This document shows, one piece after another, positions 26,772 to 41,583 of a DNA stretch of 64,000 nt. The translations under genes and the position numbers were made by a program. The DNA lies in the sequence record PZ534511.1. One strand, given 5' to 3'. Positions within the stretch are counted from its first letter, which is position 1. The number at the start of each line of letters is the position of its first letter. This DNA is from a phage. The notes below the pieces were generated by a model. The model did no database searches, was not told where the DNA came from, and saw only the letters and a program-made list of their open reading frames with translations.

Positions 26772-27982
26772 CCTGAAGAGGCAAACGTGTATAATTCTTG
26801 TGCATTGGAACGTATAAAACCCTGTTCACACTCTCATTCCCAGAGGAGATTTTATGAAGATAGAAATATTTGGTGGGGCTGACAACACTCGTGGCCTGAT
26901 TTACCTTGAATTCGATGAATCATACCTGCCAGAGGTGTTAAATATAGACTCTGTTGCTGAGGCTTTGGGAGTAAACCCTAAAGAACTCCACTCTTGTGCT
27001 GAGATCGATGGTTGGGAAGAGACCATGAATATTGATTTCAGTGAAGTAGAGGATGAACCGCTGGACTGACACACAATTAGCTGCCCGGCTAAAGTGCTGG
27101 AAGCACCTATAACACATCTTTCAACTAAATTTCCTACCACCACAATCACTTACCTCCCACACATGACTGTTTGCTTGTTTAGTGAGCAGTCATGCCTTGA
27201 CATTCTTGCCTATCCTGATAAAATTAAGTTCTTCTCTTTTCTTTTACCGAGTAATTCGGGTTTTCTGTTCTCTTCGGTTTGAAGGGGTATGGAGATACAC
27301 CTGAGTGAACAGGGTGAACAACCGAACCATTGGCTATGGCATTAGCATGGCGAAGCGGACGGGTGACGAAAGAGTGGCCGGAGGACACCAGTCACTGCCA
27401 TATGATATATGGGTGATAACCTGAAGAGTCTGAATAAGTGTTTAAGTACCAGTCAGAGGAAAAGGTGAATGGTAGCCGAAGGGGGAGGGGGGTTTCTTGT
27501 ATCTTTAATTTGTATATTATGTATACACTTGTAAACCAATCTCATCTGAATCTGTTTACCACACAAGGCGGATAGAGACAAATATTACCTATTAAACTTG
27601 AATTATTTATAGAAAATACCACAACACCACTTAAGTCTTTGATTTTACACACAAATCTTACAGATATTCAGCCTCCCTATTTAACATACCTGTAACATAT
27701 TCCATACTCTACCTGTCTGATCAATTTACTCCCACCACATCCCCACATTTTCCTTGTCTGTACTACCCCTGCCCCGCCGGGAGTCCCGTCATATCTGGCT
27801 TTCCAGCAAATATCACACCCACAAATATCATTGCCTGAAGAGGGTTTCATCCCATAACACATGCCTTACCTGAAGAGCGCTTCATACACCACGTAAATTT
27901 TTTAATTGACCTCCCCTTCCCCGCCGGAGAGGTTGGCTTTTCCCACACAGACCTGAAGAGTCAGCCAGAAATATCTGAAGAG
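26772..27982. repeat. six dispersed copies of 9-mer CCTGAAGAG (one TCTGAAGAG)
   Basis: copies at 26772, 27420, 27834, 27869, 27952, 27974 on the same strand. Confidence 0.6.
26854..27069 (+). CDS. hypothetical acidic protein
   Basis: ORF with GGAG RBS. Confidence 0.45.
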   Translation: MKIEIFGGADNTRGLIYLEFDESYLPEVLNIDSVAEALGVNPKELHSCAEIDGWEETMNIDFSEVEDEPLD

Positions 27983-28610
27983 GGTCTAGTTCTGCCCTGT
28001 CATGAGCGGTAGCGACTGGAGTGCTGCCAGGCGGACGAAATGGGAATACTTCTCATTCTTATAATAATTCTCAAATATCGAGGCAGTGAGGCAAATTAAT
28101 AGGTGAGGCCGTTCACACAGTGGCACAACATTTGCAACCTATCTTGTGGGGGTGAATGAGAATACCTATCATTGTGAGAATAGTTATCATTACGGGCAAT
28201 TTAACATAATACCCATTATGCGCACCACTGGCGATACATACAGGGATTGATAACATGAGTTACAGTTTACGCATATAACAATCATATTTCTTACTATTTG
28301 TGTGGGATATAGTTAGCAGCCAATAGATTAGATATTGACCTGCAGACTTCCAACCGTCTAGACGTCTAAACGCCCACACAACAAGGATTATACATACATC
28401 GCTGAATGTAAACAGGGCCGCAAAAATGCTACCATACCAGTTTGTAAATTTTTCATGCAGCACTTGACAAAGAGGAGAAAAACTTGTCTGACACACCGGA
28501 CACAATATGGCACAATAACGACTGTTATTATTTCATGTTTCACTGTTCACGTATAGATTGTTCCCGCATAGACTGTTTACACCTTGACAGTTTACACAGA
28601 TATGATAAGC

Positions 28611-30978: not shown

Positions 30979-31187
30979 GTTTTCCTCTCTTCCGGTTGTT
31001 GTGTGGGCGCTTTTGCCCCCTTCGAGATAAATGCTACCCCACCACCTGGCAGATGTCAACGGTTTTTATAGTTTTTATATAGCAGGCACACCCGGTGATT
31101 GTCTCCCCCTGTCGCCAGGTGCCTGCCGTGAAACAAGTATAACAAAAAACAGGACCATTGCAAGCCCTGTTTTGTAGTTTATAAATA

Positions 31188-38499: not shown

Positions 38500-38583
38500 G
38501 ATCTTTTTTCCTTTGTGTTGGCGGGAAACATTCCCGCCTTTTGTGTATAGTTTACTTGAATTTTGCAGCGTGTCAATAATTTT

Positions 38584-38982
38584 TTATTCGTGGGCACATG
38601 TTACAATGTGTTTTTTATAGCCCAGGTGGTCAGCAAGTGCCGACAAAAACTCTTCTTCGTAGATCCAGCCGTCGGCAGTGATCCCCATAGCATTTAATGC
38701 GCCCTCAAGTGCTGCGTTAGCTTTATCGTAACCGTGACCGCTCGCCTTGCCGCCAGTATAACCGTACTTATTGTTCTTGTTGTCGTGAATCCAAAACACG
38801 CAGTAGTGAGTGTTCCCGCTGGCGGCGGCATAATACCGGATCTCAGCTACTTCGTGCAAATTATTGTCATCGTCCAGGCCCACCAGATTATAAGCCTTGT
38901 AAAATCCACGATCACGGCGGCAGTTCTTGACATCAGAAAAAGAAAAGTCCGCATTATCAAAATTAAAGGTAGTGGTTTTCAT
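38584..38982 (-). CDS. hypothetical protein
   Basis: ORF with AAGAGGA RBS. Confidence 0.45.
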   Translation of the reverse strand: MKTTTFNFDNADFSFSDVKNCRRDRGFYKAYNLVGLDDDNNLHEVAEIRYYAAASGNTHYCVFWIHDNKNNKYGYTGGKASGHGYDKANAALEGALNAMGITADGWIYEEEFLSALADHLGYKKHIVTCAHE

Positions 38983-39046
38983 GATTTTATCCTCTTAGTG
39001 TCTTTTGTGCTTTTAGTGTATTTGGTGTCGGACTATATGTCAATAC

Positions 39047-39244
39047 TTATTTTTTATTAAACCAGTGGTTGATCTGTCCTTTTGTCAGGGCGCAACGATC
39101 AAGCTGTTGCAGGGTATAGCTATGACCGCGACGAAATTTATAAAGGCCTTGCCCGTTGTTAATGGTTACATCCACCCGGCAAATCACTTGATTGGTGACC
39201 ACCTGGCGAGTGTTGCGACGTACTTTGATCCCGTATGCGTTCAT
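39047..39244 (-). CDS. hypothetical small protein
   Basis: internal ATG with AAAGAGGA RBS. Confidence 0.35.
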   Translation of the reverse strand: MNAYGIKVRRNTRQVVTNQVICRVDVTINNGQGLYKFRRGHSYTLQQLDRCALTKGQINHWFNKK

Positions 39245-39325
39245 AAATTTATCCTCTTTACTGGTTAGTGCGGTGTTGTTCACCTTGTAGGGTAATAATA
39301 CCATGATTAACCTTGTTGTCAACGA

Positions 39326-39502
39326 CTATTTTAAATTATTTTTATGATAGAATCCACCTGCCGCCCCCCGCCAGGTTAACCACCATTTTTTTTCGTACTC
39401 TTCTTTATGTTCCAACGCTCCCGCCATAACCTTTTCAACCAGGGCGATAGCTTCCGTATCATTAATCACTACATTTCCCAGGCGAGTAGCATTACCTTTC
39501 AT
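39326..39502 (-). CDS. hypothetical small protein
   Basis: internal ATG with AGAAGAGG RBS. Confidence 0.35.
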   Translation of the reverse strand: MKGNATRLGNVVINDTEAIALVEKVMAGALEHKEEYEKKWWLTWRGAAGGFYHKNNLK

Positions 39503-39610
39503 TTTTGTACCTCTTCTGTAGCTGTTTACTTTATAGTGCGGACCTGCCAGGCTGGCCCCGCCAGGTTGCAACGGTTAGCGCATCAGGTTAGAAAAATTTT
39601 TTGAAAAGTG

Positions 39611-39639
39611 TTGACAGCGGCCCCGCCAGGCGGCATAAT
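39611..39639 (+). promoter_or_regulatory. plus-strand sigma70-like promoter (TTGACA-17-CATAAT) inside the minus-strand block
   Basis: hexamers preceded by A/T-rich tract; points into noncoding repeat region. Confidence 0.5.
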
Positions 39640-39959
39640 ATACCTATCGAAAGGACGGCAGGCACCGGTGACGGGGGAGACAACCACCGGGGATGGGCGC
39701 TTCATAAAATGAGAACGGTTATCATTATCATTTAAAAATTTATGCAAAAAATCCTTGCCTTCTTTGTCCTGTGTGATACTATAATAACAAGCCGGGGCAG
39801 CAGGGGCCGGGAGACAATCACCGGGCCTGCCCGTTATTCTGCAAACGAGAATAATTATCATTCAAAATTCTAAATAAGAATCCCTCGCATTTAATAAATT
39901 TAATTAGCATGCTAATTACCCTCCGTAACAATTTCCTATAAAACAGTGCCCCATAAAAT

Positions 39960-40440
39960 ATTCCCATATAGAAATTTTAAAAATCCATTTCTGAAAACGA
40001 AAAATAGATTTCGTCCCCAAAAATTTCAGGTCGAGATCCGGAACGATTTCCAGAAAATCCGATTCAGAAAACGAAAAACAGATCGAGTACTGAGAAATTT
40101 ATCGAGAAAAATTTTCAGAAAATCCAAGCCCTGGAATGAAAAGTAGATCGAGTACCTGGAAAGCTGCACCGCAACTTCAAGATAGTGGTTAGATTGTTAC
40201 CATAGAAGGTCAAGGGTAAGTGGAGGAAGTTCTAGTAGAGGGAGGTTAGCATGTGTGGGAAATCTATAATGGTGGTCTGGAATATGGTGCAAACGATAGG
40301 ATGAGCTATTCAGCTTGTCGCGCCTACTCTGAAAAATCCATTTTAGTTTTCGATCCATTTTCTGATTTTCTAAGAATTTTAAAATATCCAGCCCGGTGAA
40401 ATATCAAAAGGAGGAAATCCATTTTAGAAATCCCCCTTAT
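39960..40440. repeat. degenerate tandem and dispersed repeats in noncoding DNA
   Basis: recurring TTTCAGAAAATCC, GAAAACGAAAAA, AGATCGAGTAC and AAATCCATTTT words. Confidence 0.55.
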
Positions 40441-40467
40441 ACTTGATATGCCAGGAATTTTCAAGTA

Positions 40468-40797
40468 TCAGTTGTCTTTGTTTTTAGGTTTGTACATGCG
40501 CAGAGGTATGGTCTTTGTAACATTCCATTTCCTCAACCCTTCCCAGCTCCAGTTGTGGGCGTGGTATCCGGTTATGCATGCACTACTGGAGTGATCGTAA
40601 GCATAAGAGAACGCTAAGCGCACCAGGTGGGGCCAGTCCTTCCATGGTTGTGGACCGTAAGCTTTTCTCCAACACCGACACAAACTAAATGTCTCAAGAA
40701 TAGGAAGGATAACAAATCCATACACCGCCACCAGAATAGCCAGCGCAATGATTGTCAGGAATACATACCCTGCAGTTGAAATGATGATCTCTGTCAT
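40468..40797 (-). CDS. membrane protein
   Basis: N-terminal hydrophobic helices. Confidence 0.45.
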   Translation of the reverse strand: MTEIIISTAGYVFLTIIALAILVAVYGFVILPILETFSLCRCWRKAYGPQPWKDWPHLVRLAFSYAYDHSSSACITGYHAHNWSWEGLRKWNVTKTIPLRMYKPKNKDN

Positions 40798-40991
40798 TTG
40801 TCCTCCCCTTTCTTACGAATATAGATGTGAGAGCCTGCCTGTATATAAATTTCTCGACCATCTTCTGCAAAGATATGAAATACACGATCACCTTCGTACT
40901 CGATACGAGATATTTTCATAATGGTCTTTCCACCTGGGATACGGATCTCGTCCCCCACAGCGATGTTCCATGCAGATTTAAGCTTAAACAT
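40794..40991 (-). CDS. hypothetical small protein
   Basis: internal ATG with AAGGAAGGTG RBS. Confidence 0.4.
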   Translation of the reverse strand: MFKLKSAWNIAVGDEIRIPGGKTIMKISRIEYEGDRVFHIFAEDGREIYIQAGSHIYIRKKGEDK

Positions 40992-41229
40992 CTGCACCTT
41001 CCTTTGGGAGCTCGAACTCTGGCATAGCCATATACGCCACAACAGGGTTGTAATCAAAGTAGAAATGACCGTTAATTATCCCAGTTTTGTGAGCATAGTC
41101 ACCAGATCCTGCAAGAACAACCTCGCAAACTCCGAAATCAACCTTGCCATTCTCATCTGCCATGGCTACAATATACTTTCCTAGAGGCATGTTTTTAACG
41201 CCGTCTACAAATGTCCACCCTTTGTTCAT
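40984..41229 (-). CDS. hypothetical protein
   Basis: ORF. Confidence 0.4.
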   Translation of the reverse strand: MNKGWTFVDGVKNMPLGKYIVAMADENGKVDFGVCEVVLAGSGDYAHKTGIINGHFYFDYNPVVAYMAMPEFELPKEGADV

Positions 41230-41250
41230 AACTTTATCTCCTGGACTTTC

Positions 41251-41583
41251 TTAAGGTAACCAGTAAACAATTTCGCCTTTCAGTTCCATGTCGTTACCGA
41301 CATAGATTTTCCAGCCATCCATTTTAGCCACTGCAGGAGTGAAGTCCGAAGAACCACTAACCTCTTTCCAAGTCCCGTAGTCAGGTTGCCAGATATAGAA
41401 TCCACCTTCCTTGTCCCATGCTCCATATACCACATCGAGCAGGTTGCCCATTGCAACAATAGTAGGCCGTGGGAATAATACATCTACAGATGCGCCACAA
41501 TTTCGGGTATCTTTTAAGTTGCAATCCCAAAAGATGTCTGCCAGTGTGGCGGCGATAGCTTTACGTCTTTCCAATGTTACCAT
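41251..41583 (-). CDS. hypothetical protein
   Basis: ORF. Confidence 0.45.
   Translation of the reverse strand: MVTLERRKAIAATLADIFWDCNLKDTRNCGASVDVLFPRPTIVAMGNLLDVVYGAWDKEGGFYIWQPDYGTWKEVSGSSDFTPAVAKMDGWKIYVGNDMELKGEIVYWLP

Follow-up and report, generated by a model that had tools for sequence, protein, structure and literature searches.

A conserved non-coding island with Fur-box-like palindromes, rightward promoters and iteron-like repeats in the early region of rV5-like phages

What is the role of some 900 bp of gene-free DNA within a long block of small minus-strand early genes of a phage? The question is raised by positions 39572-40467 of a 64,000-nucleotide stretch of record PZ534511.1 (hereafter the window, whose numbering is used throughout). 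From 39300 to 40800 the window shares 99.8% identity with Escherichia phages naswa, magaca and EmilHeitz, 117 phage records match this region, and by its sequence the source phage is a Vequintavirus, i.e. an rV5-like myovirus. The original prediction for this locus had reported a promoter, two related units and degenerate repeats, and had read them as two paralogous small RNAs and/or an origin-like iteron array; the description has proved accurate, the reading only partly so. We favour, with a probability of about one half, the view that the island serves rV5-like phages as a conserved non-coding control module and is neither a gene nor a classical pair of small RNAs, and we give about the same weight to its best specific reading, a rightward-transcribed control region that would bind the host iron regulator Fur and lies beside an iteron-like, possibly origin-like segment. 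The island itself is real, conserved and, as far as the literature search could find, undescribed; its components are all of known kinds, and what is new is their combination and their occurrence in a virulent phage.

The two units reported earlier end in GAGAAYNNTTATCATT. The likeness of these ends to Fur operators had been missed, and it probably changes the likely biology of the locus. They belong to a 21-bp palindrome with the consensus AAATGAGAATnATTCTCATTT, for which a matrix was built from 59 phage sites. Three Fur-box-like operators are predicted in the island: AAATGAGAACGGTTATCATTA together with overlapping hexamer-shifted matches at 39707-39735 (matrix score 25.1), AAACGAGAATAATTATCATTC at 39843-39863 (24.3, agreeing with the classical consensus at 14 of 19 positions) and AAATAAGAATCCCTCGCATTT at 39872-39892 (18.7). 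Three more, starting at 28038, 28154 and 28172 (28038-28192; scores 22.6, 15.7 and 15.1), lie in a second non-coding island. Scored against the classical consensus GATAATGATAATCATTATC itself, the best match of the whole window (16/19) is found at 39711 on the minus strand, followed by 15/19 at 39711 on the plus strand and 14/19 at 39841 and 39847; hexamer-shifted matches occur at 39705, 39711 and 39717. In total the window has 10 matches of at least 14/19, where 2.6 would be expected. The viral background consisted of about 2.1 Mb of unrelated loci from two 14-15-base pattern scans (mostly chance matches) and holds 4 sites scoring at least 15, compared with 6 in the window, all within the two non-coding islands; in the remaining 74 kb of the naswa genome there is no site scoring 10 or more.

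The same phage matrix, run over 125 kb of E. coli K-12, retrieved 8 sites scoring at least 9.6, and 7 of these fall in the fepA-fes, fepB-entC (two), fepD-entS, fhuA, fecI and fecA promoter regions, which we take to be classical Fur-regulated ones. Within the 25-kb ent/fep cluster the top four scores (12.5, 12.2, 10.6 and 9.6) lie in the fepA-fes, fepB-entC (two) and fepD-entS intergenic regions; in 50 kb around fhuA the best score (17.0) is reached 55 bp upstream of this gene, and in 50 kb around fec the best ones are those immediately upstream of fecI (23.4) and at the junction of fecR and fecA (10.8). Runner-up scores below these sites are 3.0 (ent/fep cluster), 4.7 and 8.7. The fecI operator, ATATGAGAATGGTTATCATTA, differs from box 1 of the window at only 2 of 21 positions; the fecI promoter was also considered as the origin of the whole unit and discarded, the likeness ending at the Fur box. 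The eighth K-12 site, AATTGAGAATCATTCTGAATT, is found in the map-rpsB intergenic region (189,580; L269:39580) and scores 16.5, as high as the fhuA operator.

Phage palindromes and enterobacterial Fur operators therefore have the same sequence, with up to 16 of 19 positions matched and with overlapping hexamer-shifted matches, and by this measure the former appear indistinguishable from strong host operators. What sets the phage sites apart is their setting: they occur in a virulent phage, in non-coding islands, 58-68 bp past a -10 element and in arrays mostly phased at 29 bp, and their consensus prefers GAGAAT/ATTCTC half-sites. By sequence they thus qualify as Fur boxes, and they depart from the usual geometry, in which the box overlaps the promoter. 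Could a DNA-binding protein of the phage itself, perhaps a repressor of early genes or one resembling partition proteins, be their reader, the likeness to Fur being incidental? The consensus AAATGAGAATnATTCTCATTT departs symmetrically from the 7-1-7 core of Fur, with G for T once per half-site, and strict 29-bp phasing, as well as the many copies in one contig resembling Klebsiella phages (L122), is typical of sites for a phage's own protein. However, the motif stays constant across genera whose flanking genes differ, and the scores of host operators (fecI 23.4, fhuA 17.0) reach those of the phage sites, so that abundant Fur would be expected to bind the latter anyway. We accordingly regard a dedicated phage protein as a distinctly unlikely explanation, and consider it quite probable that Fur does bind the palindromes, as sites belonging to a non-coding regulatory island that is transcribed.

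How the sites are placed becomes clearer from relatives. A common layout was recognized in 10 phages of 6 genera, the loci compared with the window being those of ukendt (Phapecoctavirus), PVP-SE1 and GAP31 (Seunavirus), CR3, KaOmega and POP18 (Certrevirus-like), Ro1 (Mydovirus), and ChuuTotoro and W70 (Septuagintavirus). In a gap of 0.8-1.3 kb, and always on the strand opposite to the surrounding genes, there follow in order a promoter (P1) with a first RNA-like block, a second promoter (P2) with the counterpart of unit 2, one to five palindromes, three long repeats, a variable spacer and a cluster of short repeats. The first box starts 58-63 bp after the -10 of P2 in nine phages, and 68 bp after that of P1 in the window, where operator 2 begins 58 bp after the P2 -10 and operator 3 another 29 bp downstream. 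Among the ten phages the spacing between boxes is exactly 29 bp except for a final 38-bp interval in CR3 and KaOmega, as illustrated by ukendt (box starts 1536, 1565, 1594, 1623), CR3 (1537, 1566, 1595) and the window (39843, 39872); intervals of 17-29 bp are found in contigs L013, L015 and L019. Arrays in sister genera comprise 1-5 boxes, PVP-SE1 and W70 having one each in this island. In Seunavirus and Mydovirus the boxes are followed by a candidate third promoter; at this place in the window the scan found none above its threshold. Elsewhere, seven Fur-like boxes are clustered within about 640 bp at L021:3371-4007, some 1.8 kb from the leader-box copy of that contig (the leader box is described below), and L122 carries 11 in 7.8 kb, several of them inside open reading frames (ORFs). 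The island also contains a perfect 18-bp palindrome, TAATTAGCATGCTAATTA (39901-39918), which is conserved within Vequintavirus and was not seen in the islands of CR3, ukendt and PVP-SE1.

The second island of the window (27150-28260, about 1.1 kb), near the 3' end of the minus-strand block, has features of its own: a strong plus-strand promoter at 27197-27224 (11/12, with an upstream TG) followed by a small hairpin with a T-run (27247-27259), four copies of CTGAAGAG, two of AAATATCA and the three Fur-like boxes mentioned above. It is probably the 'non-coding' box and skew change reported for rV5. The idea that the two islands are paralogues was abandoned; besides Fur-like boxes they share just a weak 54-nt match of 70% identity (28050-28103 versus 40360-40411).

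Are the palindromes of the main island transcribed? A plus-strand TTGACA-17-CATAAT promoter preceded by an A/T tract had been proposed, and it is borne out: P1 (39611-39639) matches the consensus at 11 of 12 positions, ranks first among promoter-like sites in a scan of 38500-41500, is almost invariant in seven vequintaviruses and has equivalents in the other genera. Upstream lies the UP-element-like tract AGAAAAATTTTTTGAAAAGTG (39590-39610, plus strand), whose length varies among vequintaviruses. The 17-nt spacer of P1 is G/C-rich and contains CCCCGCCAGG, a motif which, allowing one mismatch, has 9 copies against 1.5 expected, 8 of the 9 on the plus strand; copies include those at 39366, 39556, 39621 and 32854, one being that in the P1 spacer and others lying just upstream of minus-strand gene starts, and CR3 has an analogous motif, GGCCCGGCGGGC, in and around its promoters. 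The TATAAT box ascribed to the second unit is likewise present, at 39780-39785; with a weak -35 (TTGCCT) and a 19-nt spacer it makes up P2 (39755-39785, plus strand), which promoter scans did not call in the window and whose homologue in other genera has a better -35. That the promoters oppose the surrounding genes also holds, conserved plus-strand sigma70-type promoters facing minus-strand genes, and AT skew is positive over 39550-40250, as would be expected were the plus strand the sense strand.

Downstream of these promoters comes a strongly conserved element. The pattern GGGAGACAA(C/T)CACCGGG occurs three times in the window against 0.08 expected, twice on the plus strand (39675-39691, 39809-39825) and once on the minus strand (31091-31107); the two units are indeed paralogues at or near the positions first given, and there is a third copy elsewhere. 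The full leader box, as we call it, consists of GAGACAAnCACCG, 4-5 nt and CTGCCCG, and would occupy about +20 to +50 of the predicted transcript. That of unit 1 (39658-39700, plus strand) has the core GAGACAACCACCG at 39677-39689, and positions 39660-39689 within it are 100% invariant in the seven vequintaviruses; that of unit 2 (39791-39833, plus strand), recognized by pattern match, has GAGACAATCACCG at 39811-39823 and CTGCCCG at 39827-39833. The third (31085-31163, minus strand; core 31093-31105) lies 8.7 kb from the island at the head of a minus-strand gene block, with its own promoter TTGCAA-16-TATACT at 31163-31136. There the -35 is located inside a terminator-like hairpin (31173-31146), and a second promoter (31059-31031) precedes minus-strand early genes. 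No Fur-like box accompanies this copy, unlike its second-locus homologues in CR3 (L017) and L021, and copies without a Fur box are also present in viral contigs of 86-93 kb. In all phages examined, every true leader-box copy stands 26-38 bp downstream of a sigma70-type -10, whereas two pattern scans of 185,579 bacterial and archaeal genomes returned no match.

Two or three trans-acting structured RNAs that pair with host or phage mRNAs through a GAGACAAnCACC loop could be supposed here: each copy has a promoter directly upstream, the 13-nt core is strongly conserved across genera, and the full 83-nt unit folds with z-scores of -2.7 to -3.5 in unit 2 of the window, CR3 and ukendt. The evidence on structure does not bear this out. 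For 22 unit copies aligned with MAFFT, RNAalifold gave no consensus structure. Folding of the stem region relative to shuffled sequence was near zero on either strand (mean z -0.58 for the plus and -0.25 for the minus strand), with the plus strand the more stable in 11 of 22 copies and hence no strand preference, and pairing of the 5' and 3' arms was no better than that of a dinucleotide-shuffled arm (mean z -0.23). The GC-rich interrupted stem described earlier can be drawn in each sequence, and some C-to-U changes on the plus strand preserve G-U pairs, but it is no better than expected from composition or shuffling; 5' arms differ by lineage and pair in different registers, so that covariation cannot be scored column by column. 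There is no terminator-like site on the plus strand from 39600 to 41500, so that discrete small RNAs are at most putative. Searches of Rfam gave no match in the window at the gathering score, a best sub-threshold hit in 39300-40800 with an expectation value (E) of 0.15 (22.8 bits against a gathering score of 126 bits), and nothing at E of 1 or less in the ukendt, PVP-SE1 and CR3 loci; a scan for tRNAs and tmRNA found nothing. An A/U-rich hairpin, UUAUUCU-GCAAACG-AGAAUAA (39834-39854, plus strand), emerges as a candidate from minimum-free-energy folding, yet it overlaps operator 2 and can equally be an extra Fur half-site, and is thus no independent evidence of RNA structure. Nor does the window hold a complementary target, the three matches being the copies themselves. 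We therefore give discrete structured small RNAs only a slight likelihood. The signal of the leader box is primary-sequence conservation together with a G-rich/C-rich asymmetry, rather than an RNA structure that could be demonstrated.

The leader could instead act in cis, the box modifying the polymerase or the transcript by put-like antitermination, as a pause or loading site, or by stabilising the 5' end. Its constant place 26-38 bp past a -10, also at the head of the minus-strand early block where the third copy stands, and its confinement to phages speak for such a role, as does a resemblance to the putL and putR RNAs of phage HK022 (PMC9378689), which are likewise about 70 nt long, lie just past early sigma70 promoters, are present in more than one copy per genome and need no dedicated gene in their vicinity. 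This comparison is one of position and length: put activity needs two long, well-defined stem-loops, whereas the stems of the island leader are statistically unsupported. The RfaH ops element GGCGGTAGNNTG is absent from the island. A cis-acting leader appears improbable as the main explanation.

Sister genera carry as first block, in the place taken by unit 1 in the window, a well-conserved element of about 90 nt, here termed RNA-A, which is absent from the window. RNA-A loci include L003:1317-1408, L004:1325-1416, L005:1328-1419 and L263:1317-1408, among others; they share an invariant CGCC/GGCG hairpin whose loop CCCC (CCAA in L010 and Ro1) has a matching GGGG (or UUGG) further downstream, suggestive of a pseudoknot. 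RNAalifold proposes instead a long-range helix with little covariation, Rfam gives no match, and the 3' sequence GCCGGTAG resembles the RfaH ops site (8/12).

Could the island nevertheless encode proteins? Parts of it are annotated as rV5 ORF198 and ORF199 (phrog_14993), the 92-codon minus-strand ORF at 39583-39861 is open in 7 of 7 vequintaviruses, and it matches phrog_14993 with E = 1.2e-62. When the seven vequintaviruses were aligned across the island and variable columns counted per codon position, substitutions proved to be spread evenly: 9, 9 and 10 at positions 1, 2 and 3 in the 92-residue ORF, 25, 26 and 22 in a 53-residue one (40197-40358) and 15, 13 and 20 in a 46-residue one (40324-40464), all three on the minus strand and without third-position bias. 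Frame-breaking indels are present in the annotated ORFs and alter the C-terminus; the ATG of the 92-residue ORF lies within operator 2 without a preceding Shine-Dalgarno sequence; phrog_14993 is its sole match, with no Pfam family, and this profile has 92 positions, the same as the ORF, as fits a family derived from these very annotations. Annotation is furthermore inconsistent between phage records, and neither ukendt nor CR3 has an equivalent ORF annotated at the corresponding place. The remark that the region holds no convincing ORF stands, a protein-coding role is hardly credible, and the coding reading was dropped for want of codon-position bias and of a Pfam match. ORF198, ORF199 and their homologues, the phrog_14993 family among them, are probably false gene predictions that cover promoters, leader boxes and Fur-like operators.

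Conservation follows the non-coding elements. Among the vequintaviruses 83-100% of positions are invariant in 39600-39870 and 39960-40110, and 97% in 40350-40380, as against 29-63% in the left flank and in 40110-40320; these blocks being more invariant than the flanks, the island is more strongly constrained than what surrounds it. For promoters, leader boxes and operators the invariant share is 83-100%, while the flanking genes diverge. Beyond the genus, sensitive blastn recovers just unit 2 and its tail (about 39768-39903) at 73-86% identity, nearly always in unannotated DNA. The genera with an island, at least six in number, infect Escherichia, Salmonella, Klebsiella, Cronobacter, Pectobacterium, Serratia and Raoultella.

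The transcripts would run into a repeat-bearing segment, which had been thought to form degenerate tandem repeats and possibly an origin-like iteron array. Repeats are present, as a spaced three-copy family of 62-nt units (39962-40023, 40036-40097 and 40101-40162, plus strand) of which the motifs listed before are parts, and not as a true tandem array; Tandem Repeats Finder returned just a trivial 12-nt, 2.1-copy array at 40095-40122. The units are spaced 74 and 65 nt apart, each with an A-tract, GAAAACGAAAAA and a GATCGAGTAC end, and 39960-40109 is 87-93% invariant in the seven vequintaviruses. Conservation in relatives extends to copy number and spacing, three copies at 63-78 bp being kept across four genera: PVP-SE1, CR3 and GAP31 have families whose units combine a tract of A5T6 type with a short inverted repeat and end in CGATCGAG(T/A)AC. 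Three long repeats are found in the Vequintavirinae genera examined, and ukendt (Phapecoctavirus) has unrelated repeats in their place. A fast-evolving G-rich, C-poor spacer follows (40163-40325, plus strand; 29-60% invariant, GC skew up to +0.60), and then a right-hand block (40326-40440) with three copies of AAATCCATTTT and two of AAATATC, best conserved at 40320-40380 and 97% invariant at 40350-40379. Of the six matches to AAAATCCATTT in the window, allowing one mismatch, three fall in the island.

It is tempting to see in this segment a replication origin, in which the iteron-like units and the right-hand cluster would bind a phage initiator, the A/T-rich part would melt, transcripts from P1 and P2 would activate or prime synthesis with an R-loop in the G-rich spacer, and the Fur boxes would be accessory. 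Iteron- and transcription-activated origins such as lambda ori, P1 oriR, T4 oriF and oriG, ColE1 and the T7 primary origin offer a comparison. Like them, the island has direct repeats beside an A/T-rich stretch (GC content falls to 27-37% over 39850-40150, with positive AT skew), promoters that point inwards and a downstream G-rich segment that could hold an RNA-DNA hybrid. Copy number and spacing of the repeats persist in four genera despite sequence drift, 10 of 10 phages show a GC-skew peak of +0.17 to +0.67 at 300-450 bp past P2, and the island is located between nucleotide-metabolism genes and replication genes: on its left nrdA, nrdB and nrdD, for ribonucleotide reductases NrdA, NrdB and NrdD, on the plus strand; on its right, all on the minus strand, genes for a family A DNA polymerase, DnaB-like and PIF1-like helicases and a DNA methylase, the next gene to the right being at 40468-40797. 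The paper on the rV5 genome, which found that skew changes track gene orientation, left the origin undefined.

Other properties tell against an origin. Unit spacing of 65-75 bp is unlike the roughly 20 bp of classical iterons. No DnaA box (TTWTNCACA) occurs in the island. GC skew does not switch at 40 kb, its cumulative turn falling near 26-28 kb, at the change of gene orientation. No initiator gene accompanies the island: the flanking genes differ between genera and none is initiator-like, comprising families without known function, NADAR and an HNH endonuclease; as candidates they proved uninformative, and they show no synteny between genera. Repeats, A/T-rich DNA and incoming transcription thus agree with an origin, and initiator, DnaA boxes and skew do not; of the proposed origin-like array it is the iteron-like repeats that stand. 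We hold the origin to be a possible function, though on balance an unlikely one, and one compatible with the control region that we favour.

As to the neighbourhood in relatives, gene 204 of PVP-SE1 (L004:2079-2666) encodes an HNH homing endonuclease that abuts the right island edge, and in other genera the right neighbour is a 270-280-residue protein without known function (phrog_12463) or a NADAR-domain protein. Among the records matching the window, 16 or 17 GenBank 'Campylobacter phage' entries (MG0656xx) match this coliphage region, identity being at least 93% region-wide among the matches listed, and their host assignment looks doubtful.

A repetitive non-coding locus expressed by an rV5-like phage has been described before, the pseudo-ToxI escape locus of PhiTE, which is the only non-coding RNA of such a phage found in the literature searched. 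It shares with the island its repetitive, non-coding nature, and differs in sequence and location. Homology to its tandem repeats of about 36 nt was rejected: ToxI-like repeats map elsewhere in Certrevirus, as in Pectobacterium phage DU_PP_IV, with the repeats near 144.05 kb and the homologue of unit 2 near 74.7 kb, and the window units of 62-74 nt are unrelated. No Vequintavirus record with ToxI-like repeats was among the matches listed. ToxI-like 36-nt repeat sequences were seen in 80 phage records, 48 of them Klebsiella phages and mostly in unannotated DNA, which suggests that antitoxin mimicry may be widespread in phages. Beyond this, the literature searched yielded nothing on Vequintavirus origins, non-coding RNAs or transcriptomes or on Fur boxes in phage genomes, and no published account of this island or of Fur boxes in these phages.

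What, then, would Fur do in this island? In the Fur-binding control region that we propose, host-type sigma70 promoters would drive rightward transcription against the leftward early genes, and each transcript would open with the invariant leader box before the polymerase meets the Fur-like palindromes 58-68 bp past the -10. Iron-loaded host Fur would occupy the operators and, because these lie downstream of the promoters and not over them, could, like a roadblock, halt or gate the non-coding transcription that runs rightward into the iteron-like, A/T-rich and G-rich segment. Such gating would couple the opening or priming of DNA, or antisense read-through into the gene at 40468-40797, to the iron status of the host. 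As the main role of the operators we put it forward tentatively, at clearly less than even odds. Several observations weigh against the scheme. The operators overlap no -35 or -10 element, which is unusual for Fur repression and makes the roadblock idea a conjecture. P2 has a poor -35 in the window, and no plus-strand terminator up to 41500 defines 3' ends. Leader boxes stand without a Fur box at the third copy of the window and in contigs L006 and L020; the Fur-like matches of L122 also fall within ORFs, as fits a sponge or another reader better than gating; and a phage protein of similar specificity may read the palindromes.

With at least six operators per genome, the arrays should also soak up Fur as the genome is amplified. 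Titration of host Fur could even be their main task, de-repressing iron uptake and thereby supplying iron-dependent ribonucleotide reductases. Enzymes of the NrdA, NrdB and NrdD kind depend on iron and all three are encoded by the phage; in the Fur titration assay, one Fur box carried by a multicopy plasmid already suffices for de-repression of fhuF. The six strong operators of the phage studied here, the arrays of 4-5 boxes in relatives, the 7-box cluster within about 640 bp of L021 and the 11 boxes in 7.8 kb of L122, together with the absence of operator-promoter overlap, point the same way. On the other hand, the fixed position after a promoter and the strict phasing at 29 bp look more like a local task, architectural or regulatory, than like a simple sink, PVP-SE1 and W70 have one box only in this island, and through-transcription would tend to dislodge bound protein. 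We consider a sponge rather unlikely as the principal function. Gating, origin and titration need not be mutually exclusive, and it can be speculated, at fairly low odds, that phased Fur arrays both gate transcription of the origin-like iterons and titrate Fur, feeding the ribonucleotide reductases of the phage.

The rV5-like phages (Vequintavirinae) and their relatives are among the coliphages of broadest host range, and rV5 is of interest against pathogenic E. coli. Their early regions are almost wholly unannotated, the island being labelled 'hypothetical proteins' or left blank, and among present candidates for the unmapped control or origin region of this phage group it ranks first. Should Fur bind the palindromes, the rV5-like phages would be, as far as we found, the first virulent phages with arrays of sites for a host iron regulator; infection would be linked to the availability of iron, which is limiting in the gut, and titration of Fur and iron-dependent transcription or replication would be predicted. 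If true, a lytic phage would read and rewire the iron homeostasis of its host by means of DNA sites alone.

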